Shown one piece after another: positions 28,867 to 49,224 of a stretch of DNA of 49,224 nt (positions are counted from its first letter, which is position 1; every line of letters begins with the position of its first letter). The DNA comes from Candidatus Thorarchaeota archaeon (lineage in GTDB: Archaea > Asgardarchaeota > Thorarchaeia > Thorarchaeales > Thorarchaeaceae), in NCBI GenBank assembly GCA_016839605.1, contig JAEOTX010000100.1, forward strand, positions 1 through 49,224. The letters run 5' to 3'. The notes beneath the pieces were generated by a model, which had not been told where the DNA came from, made no database searches, and saw only the letters and a list, made by a program, of their open reading frames with translations. The translations under genes and the position numbers were made by a program.

Positions 28867-30363
28867 ATGGATGTTCCGAATGTAACACGGAGTGCTCTTG
28901 TAGCAAATCTCAAGAAACATCGCTTGTTCATCATTGTACTTCTATTAGCTGCAATAGTCTGGACATGGGTGTTTATTCAGTCGGCAATAGATTTCGTAAC
29001 TAGCACAAGTTGGCCTAGAGCTGTCTGGAACGGTTATGGGTCCATCAATCTTTTCGGCTTCCCCATTAGATTCGCATACGAGGGCTGGGCTGATCATGAC
29101 TATTTCTATCACAGCTGGGCCAATCAGTTTCTTAGTGGTCTTCTGCCGTATACGCCAGAATTTGACCTCTTATTTCAGAATGAAGCTTACTATAATGTAC
29201 CATACTTCTTCCCGCCTCTCTATCTCTATGCTTGCGTCATTGGCAAGTTGCTTCATTCAGACCTAGGCATAGGTCTAGTTCTCACTGTATTTGGTTTCAT
29301 TACAGCGTTCCCAATCTACGGCATTTCCACCTATCTCTCTGGGAATAGAAATGTGGGAGCCGTTGCAGCTGCAACCTATTTATTCAGCCCCATAATACTC
29401 TATCATACCGTCTTCGAGTGGTTGAACCCTGCTCCGTTTGTCTTTTTCTCAATGCTCTCCTTCTACCTTCTAATGCACAACCGAAGACTCTCCGGAGTTC
29501 TCGCTATGACAACAGCCGCTCTTTTCAAGCAGACCGCCTTCTTCTTTGCTCTACCCCTAATTGCATTCGTATTGAAACGCGCCCCGCAGCCTATTTCCGA
29601 CGAAGAAACACCCCCAGAAGAAGAGGAACAAAATAAGCGGCCGGCGAGTGATGAACTAGATTTGAAAGGATTCGCGAAAATAGCACTTGTTGTATGTGGA
29701 TATGCCGCTGTCCTCTCTTTGCCTTACATTCTGGACCCTTTCAACTATGGAAATGCGATTTTCTCAAGAGCAGGCGGGACCTATCTGACCGATCTGACAT
29801 CGCCGCCACCCATCAGCTTTCCTATAACCCTCGCTGTTCTCTTCATCATGATTGGTGCTCCTGAATGGGTTTCTGAACTTGTCAATCTGACGACTTTTTA
29901 CTCAATAGGAATTATCATTGCTATTGTTCCGCTATTAGCTTTGATGCTGCTGGAGGTGAAGAAAGACCAGGATCTTCAGGCATACTGGCGGAGAATCATT
30001 TTCTTGACTTTGCTCTTGATGCTCTGCGTCCACATATTATCGCCACGTGGAATTTACAAATACTACACTGTTGCACTAGTACCATTCTTCTCAATTCTAT
30101 CAACATCTAGTCTCTGCCAGAGGACCTCTGAAAACGTTCGTGTATCTTTTCCCATGCTACTTGTTCCGATGGTTTGCAGTTTCGCAATAATGATTCCTGC
30201 AAGAACTACCTACCTGCTTTACCTAATCTTGATACTTGCTGGATATATTCTGCATAAAGCATTCTCATATACATATGAATTGGGAGCAGGACCAGCCAGA
30301 AAATTAGGCCAGCGGCTGATGGCCTCGGTACGTGGAGATTCGTCGCTGAAGGTTACTGAATGA
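28867..30363 (+). CDS. GT-C superfamily membrane glycosyltransferase, tandem paralog
   Basis: ADHDYFY..W....G.LPY, YFFPPL, LSGNR.VG, LNPAPF, LFKQTA, PRGIYKYY shared with upstream gene. Confidence 0.72.
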   Translation: MDVPNVTRSALVANLKKHRLFIIVLLLAAIVWTWVFIQSAIDFVTSTSWPRAVWNGYGSINLFGFPIRFAYEGWADHDYFYHSWANQFLSGLLPYTPEFDLLFQNEAYYNVPYFFPPLYLYACVIGKLLHSDLGIGLVLTVFGFITAFPIYGISTYLSGNRNVGAVAAATYLFSPIILYHTVFEWLNPAPFVFFSMLSFYLLMHNRRLSGVLAMTTAALFKQTAFFFALPLIAFVLKRAPQPISDEETPPEEEEQNKRPASDELDLKGFAKIALVVCGYAAVLSLPYILDPFNYGNAIFSRAGGTYLTDLTSPPPISFPITLAVLFIMIGAPEWVSELVNLTTFYSIGIIIAIVPLLALMLLEVKKDQDLQAYWRRIIFLTLLLMLCVHILSPRGIYKYYTVALVPFFSILSTSSLCQRTSENVRVSFPMLLVPMVCSFAIMIPARTTYLLYLILILAGYILHKAFSYTYELGAGPARKLGQRLMASVRGDSSLKVTE

Positions 30364-31525
30364 GCTTCTCCAGCTCTTTCTTCTTCTTCTCCAGATTCTT
30401 ATTCAGCGTCTTCAGACGTGTATCTAGCTTCTCAACTTGCTCAGTGTAGGTGTCTTTAGGCATCGCACCGGACGAGTGTCTTTCTTCAATGTGGTCCCGC
30501 AGCTGTTGGACCGACTTGATCTCTTTCTCCAATGCCTTTGCGTCTGCTTCAATTTCTGCTGCCTGATTTTCTTCATCAGTCTGGAATTGCCTTGATGGAA
30601 TCATGACGCCAAGCTGTGACTGTGTTTTTTCTGCAAAGTCCTGAAATTGATCACGAAGCATCTCAATGTTTTTGTCCACGTTGGCTAACTTCTTGTCCAA
30701 TTTGCCGATGTCTTTCTGTAGGTCGAAAACAGCATTGACTAGTCTACGCATTGTCTTCTCCATCTCGGCGCTAGCTTCTACAGAAGCCTTTAGCTGTTTC
30801 TTTTCTTCCTTCTTCTCTTGGTCCTTTACAACCTCACTTGGCTTAGCAGTCCTTATCTCTCCGCTCAGCCATTTGATGGCATTTACTGCGAACGCTTGGT
30901 TGCCCTTATGCTTCATTCCCCCGCCTTTGCGAAATACCTCGTAGCTACCAACACAGAGTACACGTCCCTTGCCTGCCTCTGCAATCGCAATAACTGGCTT
31001 ATTCGGTGGGTCTGCCGTGTCTGATGTACTCGCTATTGTTGTTGCCTTAGTGGTCACATTGAGAGTACACCCAGAAGGAACAAGTATGTCTTGTACATCC
31101 TCCGTGACGGGATGAACTACCACGTTGGTGATGATAGGCATTGTCGGAAGGCCTGCATTGTTTCTCTCGTCTCGTACAGCTGTGTTCTCGAAGCTAATTC
31201 CAAAACCTTTCGACACTTGGCTCAAGTTATTCATCAGACCACGGTCTCCCCCCGACAGTGAGAGCAGCATCAGACCGCCTCCTTTCTTTACGTATCGCTT
31301 CAGAATATCAATCTCAGCTGGTCGCAGTTTTGAGCTGTTAGGACAACCGAAAACTATGGCATCTGCCCTTTCCAGATTCTTTGCGAGTATCATGTACTCA
31401 GTGTAGGGCTCGACATCGAAGTCATTGTCCTGCAAAATCTTAGCGAGTTGCGAATATGTCGTGTCGAGTCGGCCACGTTCATTTTGGGTCTGGTCAAAGA
31501 GAATGAGCTTCCTTCTTCCGCTCAA
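30353..31525 (-). CDS. GIFT (GldG/IFT52) domain protein with C-terminal coiled coil
   Basis: ILFDQTQNE, IVFGCP...AEIDILKRYV..GG.LMLL..GG, P.GCTL.V, PVIA...GRV...GS..VF, N....N.IKWL; TTG start at 31525 after GGGGGA. Confidence 0.75.
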   Translation of the reverse strand: MSGRRKLILFDQTQNERGRLDTTYSQLAKILQDNDFDVEPYTEYMILAKNLERADAIVFGCPNSSKLRPAEIDILKRYVKKGGGLMLLSLSGGDRGLMNNLSQVSKGFGISFENTAVRDERNNAGLPTMPIITNVVVHPVTEDVQDILVPSGCTLNVTTKATTIASTSDTADPPNKPVIAIAEAGKGRVLCVGSYEVFRKGGGMKHKGNQAFAVNAIKWLSGEIRTAKPSEVVKDQEKKEEKKQLKASVEASAEMEKTMRRLVNAVFDLQKDIGKLDKKLANVDKNIEMLRDQFQDFAEKTQSQLGVMIPSRQFQTDEENQAAEIEADAKALEKEIKSVQQLRDHIEERHSSGAMPKDTYTEQVEKLDTRLKTLNKNLEKKKKELEKLIQ

Positions 31526-31676
31526 TGGTATATCCCCCTGTCTAGAGGTAGTAGGATGAGATGGTGAAAGAGAACTAATGAGAGTTGTGTAGGTGTTATC
31601 CATATGCCTTCTATCTTACGGAAGACTGAAAACTCACTCACGAATACAGCTGGAAAAAAGAGTTGGAGGTTTCAAT

Positions 31677-44114: not shown

Positions 44115-44888
44115 ATGAAGGTCTCTGTGATGCAAGAACGTCTTCAATCTGAACTCTTTGCCTCAATAGCCACACTTGACCAACTGAAGAAGATGTTCGA
44201 TATGGGAATTGTCGACATTGGGTCATATCAGAGGGAGTCTGAAGCATTGGCGAGTGAAGTCAAGGCTAACATCGCGGACTTGAAGCGAATCGGTCTCGAT
44301 TTTGGTACTTTCATTCAGACTGAACGTGTAGCAGAGCGGTTTCCTGATGCTGTTATGCTTCTTGATCTCTCCCGACGTGAAAATCGCTTCCGCGGCGACA
44401 ATATGACTATGGACGAATACTATGACCACATTGGCCTTGCGATTCTTGATGTGGCAACAGCACATGCCTCAAAGGGTCTCATGGGCTTAGCCGAGCTCAT
44501 TGTAGAAGTTGTGAAGCGCATGCCTGAGCTAAAGGCTATCAGTTATAGCGACGTGATTGAGGCGGTCAATCGTGTAGCTGAACATGGGCTTATTCCTGGA
44601 ATTCGAACGCTTCGCGGGGGTGTGAAAGTTGTCGAGCTCCGCCCACTCGAGCTTAGAAGGGACCAAGCGGATGTGGTCAATCTTGCAGCATCAAAGGGAT
44701 ATGTTTCCGTAGAGGAAGTAATGATGCTCATGAAGTGGTCCGAGGATCATGCACGACAAGTGCTCTCTAGTCTAGTAGATGCTGGAATGGCTGTGGCGGA
44801 TATTCGATTCTCCACAGGCGGAAGGTATTACTTCCCAGGTCTACGCGCCAGAGAAAGCAGCGATGGTAGGGCTACGCCCTCTCGTTAG
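44115..44888 (+). CDS. ESCRT Vps28 N-terminal core fused to Vps22/Vps36 (EAP30) tandem winged-helix domain
   Basis: N-term SELFASIATLDQLKKMF..G.V....Y (Vps28 core-like); C-term DEYY..IG..I.DV, GLM.L.EL, D...A, EL..DQ..V...A...GYVS...W....A...L..LV..G....D, YYFP (EAP30). Confidence 0.75.
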   Translation: MKVSVMQERLQSELFASIATLDQLKKMFDMGIVDIGSYQRESEALASEVKANIADLKRIGLDFGTFIQTERVAERFPDAVMLLDLSRRENRFRGDNMTMDEYYDHIGLAILDVATAHASKGLMGLAELIVEVVKRMPELKAISYSDVIEAVNRVAEHGLIPGIRTLRGGVKVVELRPLELRRDQADVVNLAASKGYVSVEEVMMLMKWSEDHARQVLSSLVDAGMAVADIRFSTGGRYYFPGLRARESSDGRATPSR

Positions 44889-45619
44889 ACGATAATCTTA
44901 ATCGCACCTTTCTTCTTATCCACCCAACTAGCAAGACCCTTTTCTACCATGATAAGAAGAACCCGGTGAAGGTCTTTTTCTGGAAGTTTCGCGAAGCTGT
45001 AGTCCTCTTCCTGAATCACGATTGACTTCACGTCTAGTCTCTGCTTTCCTGACTTCAATGCCCAATCATAGATGATGTCGACCCAATCCTCTAGGAATCT
45101 CCAGTAGACTCGTAATTGCCTTCGGTTCCTGTCCAACCACTCTGCAATCTCTTTCTGTACAAGCACCCCACAAATCAACTTGAATGAGTCGACCTTGTTT
45201 GTGATATCATTGAATGGGGGCTCTTTGATGAAGGCGGTTACTGATAAGACGTGAACATCCCGAGCTTCCATCCAACGAAGGACAAAATCTGACCACTCCT
45301 CGGCCCACATATCCCTATCTTCTTCGCGAGGAGGTATGCCGTACATCCACTCTGTCTGTCTGAGGTCTCCCCAAGGGGGCATCAGAATGACTTCTTCTGG
45401 CTCAACTAAAGCTTCCTCAATCTTGACCGCTACATCCTCAGTTTCCTCAACGGTTGTCGTTTCCTTATGCTTTACTACTACCTCTGGCTTATGGGTTGAT
45501 TCAACTTCCGCTTCGTTTTCCTTAACTGGAGTAGGTTCTTCCACCTTGGATTCTGTTTCTGTGGTTTCAGGGGCAGATTTGGTCTTCTCTTTCTCTCTGC
45601 GCCGTTCTCTGACCCCCAC
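44885..45619 (-). CDS. vps25: ESCRT-II subunit Vps25 with acidic N-terminal extension
   Basis: PPW, R..W...W.DFVL.W, PPF, AEW....R...VYW...E.W...IYDW, two WH domains; next to vps4. Confidence 0.82.
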   Translation of the reverse strand: MGVRERRREKEKTKSAPETTETESKVEEPTPVKENEAEVESTHKPEVVVKHKETTTVEETEDVAVKIEEALVEPEEVILMPPWGDLRQTEWMYGIPPREEDRDMWAEEWSDFVLRWMEARDVHVLSVTAFIKEPPFNDITNKVDSFKLICGVLVQKEIAEWLDRNRRQLRVYWRFLEDWVDIIYDWALKSGKQRLDVKSIVIQEEDYSFAKLPEKDLHRVLLIMVEKGLASWVDKKKGAIKIIV

Positions 45620-45622
45620 TCC

Positions 45623-46840
45623 CTAGGACCCCTCCGCCCAATCGATATACCTCTTCACATCCTCTGGAGCTGTTGCAGGCCTGATATTCTCAATGGCTTG
45701 CAGCAAGTCTTCTCTTGATACTGGTCGAACATCTAGAATCTCTTCCTCTTCATCCATTCTTCCAGTCCGTTGTAAGTCCCTGATAGGCTCCATAGCTGCC
45801 TCTCTGCAGACGACACTTATGTCGCGTCCACTGTAGCCCTCACTGAGGTCTGCAAGCTCCTCATAGTCTACATCGGGGGCAACCTCGATGTCTTCCATGT
45901 GTATCTCAAAGATTTTCTTCCTTGCAGGTCTGTCTGGTAGTGGCACGTGGATCTTCTTCTCAAATCTGGACCGAAGTGCAAAGTCCAACTCCCATGGGAG
46001 ATTGGTCGCACCAATCACCGTGACTCTGTCTTCCAAATCACTCGCGAGTCCCTGTAGTTCGGTGAGGAGCTGAGTCTTTAGTCTTCTTTCTCCTCCCACA
46101 TCATCGCCAGACCTAGAAACTCCTACAGAATCAAGTTCATCCATGAAGACTATAGCAGGTTGATTTCGTCTGGCCAAGGTGAAGAGATTCATGACCAGCT
46201 TCTCAGACTCTCCAAGCCACTTGCTTACAATGTTGCCAGCAGACACATTGAAGAACGTGGCATTCACTTCTGCCGCGACTGCCTTTGCAATCAAGGTCTT
46301 TCCGCAGCCTGCAGGTCCGTAGAACAGTATCCCCCTCCAAGGTTGACGGGACTTTCCTTTGAAGAGCTCTGGGTGCTTCATCGGTGCCACAATTGCGTCA
46401 TGAATTGCCTGCTTTGCATCTTCCAAGCCTGCAACATCACTCATCTTGACACTGGGTTTCTCAGTAATGATTGTATCAGCTATCATCTCCTGAAGTCTTC
46501 GTGTGTCTTCATCCACCTCTGCTTCGGCTTCTGCTGTCTTCTCCATTGCGGGTTCTGACTCCGCACTTGGGCTGAAGACAGGTGGTGTTGTCAGTCCCTC
46601 TGGAGGTCCTCTAGCCTTCTTCTTAATTCCAGAGATGTAGCGAACTCTGTCAACGCATTCCTGTGCCCTGTCAAGATAGTGTTTCTGGACTGAGGGCAGA
46701 GATGCGGCATTTGACAGTTTGATCAGAATCTTGCTTGCTTTCAGATAATACTGAGCAGCTTCTTTCTTCATTCCTCTCTGATCCAATTCTATGGCCTTAT
46801 CTAGGAGATTTCTCAGGCCTTGGTCTACTCTATCAGACAT
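45623..46840 (-). CDS. vps4: Vps4 AAA ATPase with N-terminal MIT domain
   Basis: MIT (KAIELD..G..KEA...Y...A..C..R), DVAGLE.AK, PWRGIL.YGP.GCGKT, SKWLGESEK, DELD, RRLKT.LL, ATNLPW.LD. Confidence 0.93.
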   Translation of the reverse strand: MSDRVDQGLRNLLDKAIELDQRGMKKEAAQYYLKASKILIKLSNAASLPSVQKHYLDRAQECVDRVRYISGIKKKARGPPEGLTTPPVFSPSAESEPAMEKTAEAEAEVDEDTRRLQEMIADTIITEKPSVKMSDVAGLEDAKQAIHDAIVAPMKHPELFKGKSRQPWRGILFYGPAGCGKTLIAKAVAAEVNATFFNVSAGNIVSKWLGESEKLVMNLFTLARRNQPAIVFMDELDSVGVSRSGDDVGGERRLKTQLLTELQGLASDLEDRVTVIGATNLPWELDFALRSRFEKKIHVPLPDRPARKKIFEIHMEDIEVAPDVDYEELADLSEGYSGRDISVVCREAAMEPIRDLQRTGRMDEEEEILDVRPVSREDLLQAIENIRPATAPEDVKRYIDWAEGS

Positions 46841-46981
46841 CCCGATTCAGGTCTAACTGGAACCTGTGATGATAATAAGTTCTGTGTGACCTATCACTAT
46901 ACGCTCTTAACACCGAGATTCCTAGATTATGAATAAGGAAGGCCGCACCTTGTTCTACGAAGGTTTAAACGTTGAGCAATC

Positions 46982-47635
46982 ATGCTAGTCTTGCAGGGCG
47001 AAGTCCCTGACGAAGTGGTGAGGCCGTTGGATTCACTTAGAAAGGCATTCAAATGGGGTCGGAAGAAACCCGACATTGGAGAGGTTTCCAGCCAACTCAG
47101 AATTCTAACCAAACAGCTTGCTCGTGAGAGAAACAAGCTAGAGAAGGAAGAGCGGGACACAAGAGCTCGCGCCATAAAGGCTCGCAAGGCTGGACAGACG
47201 GATGCCTTCAAGACTTACGCCACTGAAATGGTGCGCTTCCGAAGATACGCTCTTTCAACAGACAAAGCACGTCTTCAAATCCTCAAGATATTGGCTCATC
47301 TCAATCGCGCGCAGACTTCGGCAAGAACCGGCCGCGCACTTGAGCAAGTTGCAAAGATACTAGGAATGCTGGGTGACACAAGCGATACCCGGAAACTGGT
47401 GGAAAATGTTGATGAAATCACTCGCCGCCTAGATGAGTTTGAGATTGAAAGTGAAATATCTGCAGATGCACTTGATGCAAGTATGGAAGTAAGCTCAGAT
47501 GACCTGACCGCTGCTATGCAGGAAATTGACGTGGAGGTCGGACTGGCTGATGCAACTGTGGCTGCTAAGCCTGCTTCTGAATCAGACACCCTTGAGAAAG
47601 ACATCAAGGATCTGGAGCGCGAACTGGGTATCTAG
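46982..47635 (+). CDS. ESCRT-III protein, Vps2/24/46 (CHMP1-3) class
   Basis: Basic N-half (L.....KQL.RE..KL.KEE......AIKA.K.G......YA.E.VR.R), acidic C-half, C-terminal MIM1-like LEKDIKDL; start may be TTG near 47027. Confidence 0.85.
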   Translation: MLVLQGEVPDEVVRPLDSLRKAFKWGRKKPDIGEVSSQLRILTKQLARERNKLEKEERDTRARAIKARKAGQTDAFKTYATEMVRFRRYALSTDKARLQILKILAHLNRAQTSARTGRALEQVAKILGMLGDTSDTRKLVENVDEITRRLDEFEIESEISADALDASMEVSSDDLTAAMQEIDVEVGLADATVAAKPASESDTLEKDIKDLERELGI

Positions 47636-49195
47636 CTACCATCTATATCCTTGACCGTAACGAGATGAACGTTCGATTTCGCGTTTAGTGTGATACGAAT
47701 CACGCATCAGACCTCTATATCTTCTGATGAAGTCTTCGGGGACCAGATGGCCATTTCTCATCAGATGGACTGTTTCATTGATTGCATTCTGAATCTCCAT
47801 AGCGTTTCTTCTGAGATACTCCATATCAAATCCAGTGCCTCCATATGGCACCCCCTGCCTGTAGTCCACTCGTCCAATAGTGTTCTCAAGATGCTCTTTG
47901 AAAGCCCTTGGATGGTCATATGGGTTCTCATTTCTGCCATATCCTGATGGCATCGTTCTTGAATGGAAAAATTCTGATCTCCCTGGGTAACGCTGCGGTG
48001 CTTCTACGGCTGTGTTGCTTGTTGAAAGGAGTGAATACACTAAACCCTCTATCTTCAATCTGACGTCGCTAATGTTGAGGTTCTTCTGTTCGATTTTCCT
48101 AACCCTTTGTAAGTCGCTCTGCATATACTTCTCAAACTTTCTCGCAATCTCAAAATAATCTGGCATGACCTTCTTTGTATCCTCACTGCAGGAGATTTTA
48201 AGGTCGCCCTGTTTGAGTCGCAATACAAGCTTCTTTCGAAGCCGACCATATTCCTCAATCCCTTTCAAATACATTAATGGGAATTGGAATACAATCTCTG
48301 TCTTCTTGCGTAATCTTCCTGTTTCAGCTACTAGGAATAACCTCTTGTTTGTGATGAAGAGAGTGCCATAGGCCTTGTCATTCTTCAAGAAGTTACTACC
48401 TACCACCCTAATGTCTGGCAATGCAGCCACGGGCAATTCATTGACAGAGAGTTCGCCATGTTCATAGAAGTCAGCGAATTCTTTCCTGTGATAGCTCAAG
48501 CCGTCAAGTTGTGCCATCACCTCTTTGAGCCTCGGTCTAACCTCATTTAGGCTGTCATCCACATGCTGCTTGTAGTAGTTGCCTAGCTCCATCACCCTAT
48601 TCCTGACACCTTCGATGAACGGGAACTGAGCCGGAGTCCATTTGCTATAGTCGAGTAATCCCTTTGTTTCAGCGGCAATCTGCTTCGCAACTATTTCTGC
48701 TTGATTTCCTATTCGACTCTTAATTGCAGGCATCTCATCCTGTACGGACTCCACTTTCTCCTCAATCCAATGATAATGCAGGAAGTTTGCCATTCTGAGA
48801 GATACAAGCGTCCTCTTGGCATTGTCAAGTTTGGTCGTGAATTCTCTCAGTTTGGTATGGCCATATTGGATACTCATGATGGAATGTCTAAGCTCTTGAG
48901 CCAGAGTTCGCCTTCTCTCTTCCAGCAGGACAATCCGACTAGAGTGACACCGAGGGCATATGTCTGCCGTTCGTTTACCAGCATCAATATTCTCAGATTC
49001 ACACTCAGGACATGTGTCCAACGCCTCGTCCTGTGACAGAGTCAATGTTGCATGACAGTCGCGGCACATATGATACTCTTTGGTCCGAGAATCGAGGCAA
49101 TCGGAACACAGCACTGTACCACAATCTTCACACATGTGACTAGCTCTGTTTCTTTGACAGACAGGGCACCGATGAGATGAGGAATCTAGAGTCAA
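47636..49195 (-). CDS. Multidomain protein: B-box/zinc fingers, coiled coil, PH/GRAM-like domain, Tyr/Pro/Gly linker, Vps23-like steadiness box
   Basis: CxxC..CxxC...C..C plus further CxxC pairs; heptad region; GTLFITNKRLFL; C-term EIQNAINETVHLMRNGHLVPEDFIRRYRGL; GGAGGT upstream of TTG. Confidence 0.7.
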   Translation of the reverse strand: MTLDSSSHRCPVCQRNRASHMCEDCGTVLCSDCLDSRTKEYHMCRDCHATLTLSQDEALDTCPECESENIDAGKRTADICPRCHSSRIVLLEERRRTLAQELRHSIMSIQYGHTKLREFTTKLDNAKRTLVSLRMANFLHYHWIEEKVESVQDEMPAIKSRIGNQAEIVAKQIAAETKGLLDYSKWTPAQFPFIEGVRNRVMELGNYYKQHVDDSLNEVRPRLKEVMAQLDGLSYHRKEFADFYEHGELSVNELPVAALPDIRVVGSNFLKNDKAYGTLFITNKRLFLVAETGRLRKKTEIVFQFPLMYLKGIEEYGRLRKKLVLRLKQGDLKISCSEDTKKVMPDYFEIARKFEKYMQSDLQRVRKIEQKNLNISDVRLKIEGLVYSLLSTSNTAVEAPQRYPGRSEFFHSRTMPSGYGRNENPYDHPRAFKEHLENTIGRVDYRQGVPYGGTGFDMEYLRRNAMEIQNAINETVHLMRNGHLVPEDFIRRYRGLMRDSYHTKREIERSSRYGQGYRW

Positions 49196-49224
49196 GTGTA
49201 TACCTCCTGCAGCCTATGGAGTAA

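Follow-up and report, generated by a model that had tools for sequence, protein, structure and literature searches.

The five-gene cluster and its setting

[quoted passage not shown] This stretch, referred to here as the window, is an entire contig (C22) of a Thorarchaeota metagenome-assembled genome (MAG; 3.08-Mb assembly, 259 contigs, 80% complete). A preliminary description, made from the sequence alone, had reported five adjacent ESCRT-related genes in this segment, and we find all five open reading frames (ORFs) exactly where it placed them and with domain identities that largely agree with those it proposed (Table 1). The five-gene feature is real, that reading of it is largely correct, and it has already been described in the literature. 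Its central element is a protein in which the N-terminal domain of Vps28 is joined to Vps22, and which probably docks the steadiness box (SB) of a 519-aa zinc-ribbon protein encoded in the same cluster.

Table 1. Features of the ESCRT cluster, with positions in the window
Feature	Coordinates	Strand	Evidence
Vps28N-Vps22 fusion, 257 aa	44115..44888	+	Pfam EAP30, Foldseek, profile split
Vps28 N-terminal (headpiece) domain, aa 1-85	44115..44369	+	hhalign, VIA, PDB profile
Vps22 helix and tandem winged-helix domains, aa 99-257	44409..44888	+	Pfam, AlphaFold2, Foldseek, VIA
Vps25, 244 aa	44885..45619	-	Pfam ESCRT-II PF05871
Vps4 ATPase, 405 aa (MIT, AAA, lid, Vps4_C)	45623..46840	-	Pfam, NCBIfam
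ESCRT-IIIA (Vps2/24/46 type), 217 aa	46982..47635	+	Pfam Snf7, PDB matches
Znr_CC_PH_SB protein, 519 aa, candidate ESCRT-I-like subunit	47636..49195	-	AlphaFold2, homologs, ortholog ThorAB25_08990
Triple zinc-ribbon (B-box-like) module, aa 1-90	48926..49195	-	conserved Cys, Pfam
Helical / coiled-coil region, aa 91-246	48458..48925	-	AlphaFold2 model
PH/GRAM/GLUE-like domain, aa 250-360	48116..48448	-	VIA fold match
SB-like helical hairpin, aa 454-514	47654..47836	-	AlphaFold2, PDB profile

Within the cluster vps4 and vps25 are co-directional and separated by a 3-base gap, with vps25 downstream; vps22 is convergent toward this pair, and the ESCRT-III gene is divergent from vps4 and abuts the gene for the 519-aa protein stop to stop. 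The contig ends 29 bases beyond the cluster, and positions 1-127 of contig C136 (6373 bases) are identical to window positions 49098-49224; adjacency of the two contigs is all but certain. Past this 127-base overlap, C136 encodes two TldD/PmbA proteins, ArgRS and TFB, a flank also present in relatives; in one of these (L009) a class II aminoacyl-tRNA synthetase gene bounds the module on its other side. Because the overlap leads into housekeeping genes seen in relatives, the cluster is complete with its five genes. The nearest loci are in other Thorarchaeota MAGs, in which the 519-aa protein is 84-93% identical. The module is conserved across the Thorarchaeial class, the five-gene synteny (a point that the preliminary description had marked for checking) being kept in relatives with housekeeping genes at both borders.

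Several of these components have been treated before. Makarova et al. (2024, mBio, PMC10936438) reported an Asgard Vps22 (cog.002769) fused to an SB, defined the Znr_CC_PH_SB and Znr_PH_CC_SB proteins (cog.011556) as an ESCRT-I component that is likely to be ancestral, drew the analogy with the PH/zinc-finger (GLUE) arrangement of Vps36, and proposed membrane association through the PH domain. In Hatano et al. (2022, PMC9192718), five genes, ThorAB25_08990 (SB), 09000 (ESCRT3A), 09010 (Vps4), 09020 (Vps25) and 09030 (Vps22), were synthesised for yeast two-hybrid (Y2H) analysis, in which the Thorarchaeial Vps22 ortholog interacted with itself. These are the orthologs of the five window genes, ThorAB25_08990 ('SB') corresponding to the 519-aa protein. 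A claim of novelty for the locus is therefore not upheld: both architectures and the GLUE analogy are in the first of these papers, and the orthologous five genes are in the second.

The Vps28N-Vps22 protein and its predicted partner

In the 257-aa protein, residues 83-229 match Pfam EAP30 (E 1.2e-14; 55.1 bits, where the cut-off is 26.8), and Foldseek comparison of its model retrieves human and yeast Vps22 first (2zme_A, 3cuq_A, 1u5t_A; E 2e-7 to 2e-5) and then Vps36. The match begins at position 66 of the EAP30 model, the N-terminal helical Vps22 region (positions 1-65) being missing; Vps22 proteins of non-Thorarchaeial Asgard archaea cover positions 2-218 by Pfam. The AlphaFold2 (AF2) model, built with 29 homologs, has a helical hairpin and short helices at residues 1-89, followed by a linker, a helix and two winged-helix domains, with a predicted local distance difference test (pLDDT) score of about 90 for residues 1-85. 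It is this hairpin that resembles the N-terminal domain of Vps28. In VIA comparisons the best match overall to residues 1-85 is an ESCRT-I headpiece chain, 6vme_U (Z 12.0, root-mean-square deviation (rmsd) 1.9 Å, 83 aligned residues), and further matches are 2f6m_D (entry 'Vps23-C:Vps28-N subcomplex', Z 10.7) and 2caz_B (a chain named Vps28, Z 9.5). A PDB profile search with the same residues places yeast Vps28 on top (E 0.11-0.24), and hhalign of the Thorarchaeial hairpin with Asgard Vps28 gives 98.9% probability (E 1.4e-17, 33% identity, 76 columns). Vps28-N is missed in the 257-aa protein by single-sequence Pfam and NCBIfam scans, which also miss the SB discussed below; profiles and folds are required for both assignments.

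Comparison with other Asgard archaea shows how the two parts are normally arranged. In five non-Thorarchaeial Asgard genomes, positions 4-85 of the Thorarchaeial Vps22 profile match an ORF of 202-234 aa (E 3e-15 to 2e-10) and positions 81-245 match a neighbouring ORF of about 250 aa; by Pfam these are Vps28 (PF03997, 1.5e-13 to 7.6e-16) and full-length Vps22, and the gene orders outside the class are Vps23core-Vps28-Vps22 or UEV-Vps23-Vps28-Vps22. Across 201 Asgard genomes the Vps28N hairpin profile gives a single match per genome, on an ORF of 250-320 aa in the Thorarchaeial family and of 205-240 or 465-490 aa elsewhere, the longest class being carried by family f5. In a sister-family genome of the same class (G001), one ORF of 265 aa scores above cut-off against the Pfam models VPS28 (26.9 bits) and EAP30, and is followed by Vps25 and then Vps4. 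No separate Vps28 was found in the source genome, at its 80% completeness, with Pfam, the Vps28N profile or hhalign.

The C-terminal four-helix bundle of Vps28 docks on ESCRT-II, and it is this bundle that is lost in the fusion, the chain entering the winged-helix tandem past residue 85. Together the profile and fold comparisons show that residues 1-85 are an ortholog of the Vps28 N-domain, present once per genome and fused to Vps22 only in the Thorarchaeial class among the genomes sampled. The simplest reading is that adjacent vps28 and vps22 genes were fused at the base of the class, an event that would have entailed loss of the Vps28 C-domain and of the first ~65 EAP30 model positions. The fusion proposed in the preliminary description thus stands, with its Vps22/36 part narrowed to Vps22, and so does the covalent ESCRT-I/II link that it drew from it, since Vps28N and Vps22 lie in one chain.

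The 519-aa protein has weak Pfam matches only (double zinc ribbon DZR, 4e-4; B-box, 0.19; and hints of bacterial PH domains), and its 167 homologs are nearly all from Thorarchaeota. Its AF2 model (35 homologs, pLDDT 78.6) consists of zinc knuckles at residues 1-90, long helices within 91-246 (91-135, 142-176, 188-217 and 220-246; pLDDT mostly above 85), a beta-sandwich with a C-terminal helix at 255-357, a disordered linker at 394-453, and a hairpin at 454-514 with pLDDT above 90. The order of three zinc ribbons, coiled coil, PH domain and SB is that of the published Znr_CC_PH_SB architecture (asCOG cog.011556), to which we assign the protein by layout and orthology. Twelve cysteines form six CxxC pairs (C10/C13, C22/C25, C30/C33, C44/C47, C62/C65 and C80/C83) that are 91-100% conserved, and the zinc ribbons have no RanBP2/NZF match in Pfam. 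Several database entries, including ThorAB25_08990, begin at a methionine equivalent to M21 and lack the first CxxC; because the C10/C13 pair is 91% conserved among family sequences long enough to include it, the longer form, with its TTG start, is suggested to be the genuine one, the shorter annotations having lost the first zinc site (codons 1-20, 49136-49195, minus strand).

The fold of residues 242-358 is of the PH/GRAM/GLUE type, with VIA matches to the MTMR2 PH-GRAM domain (Z 12.2, rmsd 2.8 over 107), Lam6 (Z 11.6) and the EAP45 GLUE domain (2hth_B, Z 11.2, rmsd 3.7 over 107, 21-22% identity; 2dx5_A, Z 10.2). Thirteen Lys/Arg residues of this domain are conserved at 80% or more, which points to a conserved basic surface, and a homolog of the protein in a non-Thorarchaeial Asgard genome (G075) matches Pfam bPH_3 (5e-6) and GRAM (0.0045). 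Foldseek also returned DH-PH proteins for the whole 519-aa model; we rejected this identity, the rmsd exceeding 15 Å and the likeness being merely one of helices followed by a PH domain. A profile of the C-terminal hairpin retrieves the yeast Vps23 SB from the PDB (2p22_A, 2f66_A, 2caz_A; E 0.025-0.11), and hhalign with the Asgard Vps23 SB is in register but weak (E 0.0015, 17% probability); single-sequence Pfam scans find no Vps23_core, and no UEV or UQ_con, in the protein. Domain by domain, then, the comparisons called for in the preliminary description support Vps28N, Vps22 and the PH/GRAM/GLUE fold, and the SB weakly by profile, so that its GLUE-like domain and zinc fingers on an SB-bearing protein are retained.

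The preliminary description had also proposed modelling the SB with Vps28N. When the two hairpins were submitted to complex prediction with an alignment for each fragment, ipSAE was 0.86 in three runs and 0.02 for the best of three controls; of 80 solved complexes 58 reach the mark applied, as do two of 110 mismatched pairs. Contacts agree between runs at 95% or better, partner pLDDT is at least 79, and the columns at the predicted interface are better conserved than the remaining hairpin columns (0.81 vs 0.62, and 0.74 vs 0.56). With the Vps28N and SB profiles used, one hairpin of each type is detectable in the source genome, across which a three-sequence Asgard Vps23 SB profile finds nothing (best E 0.3) and Pfam Vps23_core gives noise only. 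We considered whether the two hairpins might be duplicates of one another and rejected this, as hhalign between them gives 4% with no mutual homology; they are therefore better viewed as different headpiece members. The Vps28-N domain of Vps22 thus probably docks the steadiness box of the 519-aa protein, as judged from the predicted complex.

The remaining products of the cluster are readily assigned. Vps25 matches Pfam ESCRT-II (PF05871) at residues 93-193 (E 7e-14, 52.6 bits against a cut-off of 27); its N-terminal ~90 aa (45350-45619, minus strand) are an acidic, Glu/Lys/Thr-rich low-complexity segment ahead of this domain, and the Vps25 of relative L009 is similar in length (240 aa). Vps4 has Pfam AAA (5e-39) and Vps4_C (1.3e-5) matches and an MIT match (4.6e-5) under the Pfam cut-off, as well as a match to the NCBIfam CdvC model (3.7e-80), the only addition that NCBIfam makes for the five genes. 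The 217-aa ESCRT-III matches Pfam Snf7 (E 7e-12), and its best PDB matches, CHMP2A (2e-7), CHMP1B (1e-5) and CHMP1A, place it in the A type (Vps2/24/46). A second ESCRT-III, of 222 aa and the B type, is encoded away from the module (G000, C179:55295-55963, minus strand), between genes for an HAD hydrolase and an inositol-monophosphatase-family protein; its best PDB match is Heimdall ESCRT-IIIB (3.6e-9), it also matches Snf7, and it corresponds to ThorAB25_07240 ('ESCRT3B') of Hatano et al. The recruitment of ESCRT-III by the module, as first envisaged, is overstated in that the B type, expected to be the one recruited by Vps25, lies outside the cluster.

Two further proteins have related parts. 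A 767-aa protein, also on C179 (10807-13110, minus strand), begins with a coiled-coil part, contains a CarboxypepD_reg-like Ig domain and ends in an EAP30 tandem winged helix that shares 30% identity with the Vps22 part of the fusion; it is a second, multidomain ESCRT-II-like protein. A 416-aa protein within the window (30353-31603, minus strand), 13 kb from the module, combines an IFT52-type GIFT domain (Pfam 4e-19) with a coiled coil and a hairpin at its C terminus; in other Thorarchaeial genomes, locus tags place its homologs 14-24 genes away from the ESCRT module. The hairpin aligns with the Asgard Vps23 SB (hhalign 72%, E 3.5e-5) and, amid coiled-coil noise, with yeast Vps28-N (E 0.15), and has no similarity to the Vps28N or SB hairpins of the module.

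Ubiquitin and the ancestry of the module

The preliminary description had remarked on the lack of ubiquitin and E2 genes in the window, and this extends to the genome as a whole: at 80% completeness, neither the window nor the other contigs contain ubiquitin (PF00240), or E2 or UEV by Pfam. Ubiquitin is likewise found in none of 60 genomes of the class that are at least 85% complete, and in a sample of the phylum it is present in 138/145 non-Thorarchaeial Asgard genomes vs 0/56 Thorarchaeial ones. Among 27 Thorarchaeial genomes there is a single sub-threshold match to E2. A canonical UEV-Vps23 elsewhere in the genome, which would have offered a competing partner, was not found with Pfam, and the UEV model has no match in 42 Thorarchaeial genomes; this negative is soft, because the model is positive in just two of five control Asgard genomes. 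The source genome does contain two ThiF-type E1-like genes, and in a control search ThiF genes (MoeB/ThiF) were near-universal, with 14/14 genomes positive. Missing ubiquitin in Thorarchaeota was noted by Hatano et al., and a 2023 preprint states that Thorarchaeia have no UEV-Vps23.

The Znr_CC_PH_SB family is not restricted to archaea of this kind. Its profile matches 55 of 56 Thorarchaeial genomes, and in several ubiquitin-bearing families it matches 47/51, 7/7, 6/6, 5/5, 3/3 and 2/2 genomes. In G075, a 22-kb stretch (C17:151000-173373; L040/L041) contains Vps25, Vps4, a pair of ESCRT-III genes, Znr_CC_PH_SB and a DUF4350/GIFT-like gene, and farther along the same stretch, past ~8 kb of housekeeping genes, there follow a Yip1-domain gene, E1, E2, ubiquitin, a RING E3, UEV-Vps23, a free Vps23 core, Vps28 and Vps22. 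Several details of this split ubiquitin-ESCRT supercluster may be noted: the Yip1-domain protein has a zinc ribbon, the RING E3 is a prokaryotic protein of 86 aa, UEV-Vps23 and a free Vps23 core of 98 aa are both present, and the DUF4350/GIFT-like gene adjoins Znr_CC_PH_SB.

The Znr_CC_PH_SB protein is therefore ancestral in Asgard archaea and not a Thorarchaeial substitute for UEV. The preliminary description had placed the zinc-finger/PH/SB protein where a UEV subunit would be expected, and that part of it is withdrawn, since the family is present in most ubiquitin-bearing Asgard families, in G075 on the same contig, and coexists elsewhere with ubiquitin, E1, E2, UEV-Vps23 and Vps28. Given this gene set, the Thorarchaeia look like a reduced version of a G075-type ubiquitin-ESCRT system in which the SB protein was already present.

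A proposed ubiquitin-free ESCRT-I/II junction and its alternatives

We think it rather likely that the cluster is a core ESCRT locus, streamlined from the Asgard ubiquitin-ESCRT system, in which the fused Vps28N-Vps22 docks Znr_CC_PH_SB and recruitment is ubiquitin-free. The ancestral arrangement would have been of separate, adjacent vps23, vps28 and vps22 genes, as in other Asgard lineages; in the Thorarchaeia the Vps28 headpiece domain is joined to the Vps22 winged-helix tandem, making the ESCRT-I/II bridge a peptide bond. The fused Vps28-N would dock the C-terminal SB hairpin of Znr_CC_PH_SB, whose basic PH/GRAM/GLUE-like domain may take the assembly to the membrane and whose zinc ribbons and helical region may bind putative cargo, a regulator or themselves. 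The Vps22 part, probably a homodimer given the reported Y2H self-interaction of its ortholog, would bind Vps25, which would recruit the B-type ESCRT-III encoded on C179; this in turn would recruit the cluster's own A-type ESCRT-III, and disassembly of the polymer would fall to Vps4. Recruitment would be ubiquitin-independent because no ubiquitin, E2 or UEV has been found in the class. Of the ubiquitin independence first proposed, then, the absence of these components is borne out, and independence itself is deduced from that absence only.

Several points weigh against this reading. The source genome is just 80% complete and the UEV negative is soft; the sequence evidence for a Vps23-type SB in the C-terminal hairpin is weak; and SB-Vps28N binding is predicted only, and the prediction may have passed because a like complex, the yeast/human ESCRT-I headpiece, is already solved. 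Eukaryotic ESCRT-I headpieces contain three hairpins (Vps23 SB, Vps28 N and Vps37 SB), and a third subunit may therefore be missing from the model. In addition, the Thorarchaeial Y2H text of Hatano et al. has SB interacting with 'Vps28'.

These points bear most directly on the identity of the partner. It is conceivable, if unlikely, that the SB of Znr_CC_PH_SB joins a protein encoded elsewhere, either a Vps28-BAR fusion or the GIFT-coiled-coil-hairpin protein, and that Vps28-N serves Vps22 self-association or another ligand. A Vps28-BAR fusion is reported for Thorarchaeia by Eme et al. (2023), and a 411-aa all-helical protein (C117:21699-22934, minus strand; 10 kb from a ThiF-family gene), which matches Pfam VPS28 weakly and below threshold (E 0.003), may be of that type; the GIFT protein hairpin resembles the Asgard Vps23 SB, as described above, and a three-hairpin headpiece would leave room for either. 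We nevertheless rejected the 411-aa protein as a demonstrable Vps28, since its family appears unrelated to Asgard Vps28 (hhalign 0.3-0.4%) and phmmer and profile searches of the PDB return only generic coiled coils. The Vps28N profile, moreover, has exactly one match per Thorarchaeial genome, on Vps22, both hairpins are encoded in one conserved five-gene module, and the predicted complex is confident with a conserved interface.

The GIFT protein might instead add to the proposed pair, as a third headpiece subunit, for which the evidence is thin. On this extension, which we consider quite unlikely, a single hard-wired, ubiquitin-free ESCRT-I/II would have a three-hairpin headpiece in which the Vps28-N of the fusion is bundled with the Znr_CC_PH_SB steadiness box and with the SB-like hairpin from the GIFT protein, and the GIFT domain would stand in for UEV as a cargo- or glycan-sensing head. 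We found no description of a GIFT-SB ESCRT-I subunit in the literature searched.

Two other explanations leave the pairing aside and concern what the module does. Dependence on a modifier after all, with the zinc ribbons or GLUE-like PH domain recognising a SAMP/Urm1-type or divergent ubiquitin-fold tag missed by PF00240, strikes us as rather unlikely. Another ubiquitin-like modifier is made conceivable by the two ThiF-family E1-like genes; the nearest GLUE structures (2hth, 2dx5) are ubiquitin complexes, and members of the Znr_CC_PH_SB family lie beside E1-E2-ubiquitin-RING operons in other Asgard archaea. But ThiF genes are near-universal, no E2 or UEV was found in the source genome or the Thorarchaeial genomes searched, the PF00240 search that recovers ubiquitin from almost all other Asgard genomes finds it in none of the Thorarchaeial ones, and the zinc ribbons are not of the RanBP2/NZF type by Pfam. 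Very unlikely, in our estimation, is a role of these genes in ESCRT-III/Vps4 cell division or membrane repair, with the zinc-ribbon/PH/SB protein a CdvA-like membrane anchor and no ESCRT-I/II sorting. SB hairpins and CdvA do share similarity (Makarova et al. 2024 and a 2023 preprint), the best score of Vps4 is to the CdvC model, and a membrane-binding domain with a hairpin follows the logic of CdvA; yet Vps22, Vps25 and the Vps28-N fusion indicate an assembly of the ESCRT-I/II type, and a CdvA-like role would dispute the cellular function alone, leaving the SB-Vps28N pairing intact.

Among large Asgard classes, the Thorarchaeia alone have ESCRT-I/II-like parts and no ubiquitin, and they show the form that an ESCRT sorting or scission system takes without a ubiquitin input, whether absent or lost. 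The locus also offers biochemistry a minimal, two-protein ESCRT-I/II junction, and the collapse of adjacent vps28 and vps22 into one gene sharpens the published domain cartoons.

Compared with those published descriptions, the 519-aa protein has the same domain order as Znr_CC_PH_SB (cog.011556) and ThorAB25_08990, with no essential difference, and the fusion, like the SB-fused Vps22 of cog.002769 and ThorAB25_09030, places a helical hairpin at the N terminus of an EAP30 protein with tandem winged helices. Relative to the description of cog.002769, the hairpin is now specified as the Vps28 N-domain ortholog, with the Vps28 C-domain and EAP30 positions 1-65 lost. Because the components, the architecture and the absence of ubiquitin have all been published, our analysis confirms and refines rather than discovers; what it adds is the Vps28-N orthology and its single-copy pattern, the route of fusion from adjacent genes, a controlled complex prediction, and the counts.

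With the eukaryotic ESCRT-I headpiece (2F66, 2F6M, 2P22, 2CAZ, 6VME) the Thorarchaeial module shares the Vps28-N fold (rmsd 1.9-2.4 Å over 83-84 residues) and, as predicted here, an SB-like hairpin packed on it; it differs in being without UEV, Vps37, Mvb12 and the Vps28 C-domain, with two hairpins identified so far, and in having a covalent bridge to ESCRT-II in place of the contact between the Vps28 C-domain and Vps36. The likeness to the Vps36/EAP45 GLUE domain is one of PH-type fold and of position near the membrane, where the pathway receives its input, but the Thorarchaeial domain is on the SB subunit and not on an EAP30-family ESCRT-II subunit; it is unsplit, unlike the yeast GLUE domain with its NZF insertions, the zinc ribbons being N-terminal and non-NZF; and whereas the Vps36 domain binds phosphoinositide and ubiquitin, the comparison here is through fold and conserved basic residues alone. 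The closest parallel to the fusion itself is the Heimdallarchaeial UEV-Vps23-Vps28 protein HeimAB125_14070 (Hatano et al. 2022), another Asgard case of the Vps28 N-hairpin joined to an adjacent ESCRT gene; that fusion stays within ESCRT-I and keeps UEV and ubiquitin, whereas the Thorarchaeial fusion spans ESCRT-I and ESCRT-II and is without the ubiquitin branch.

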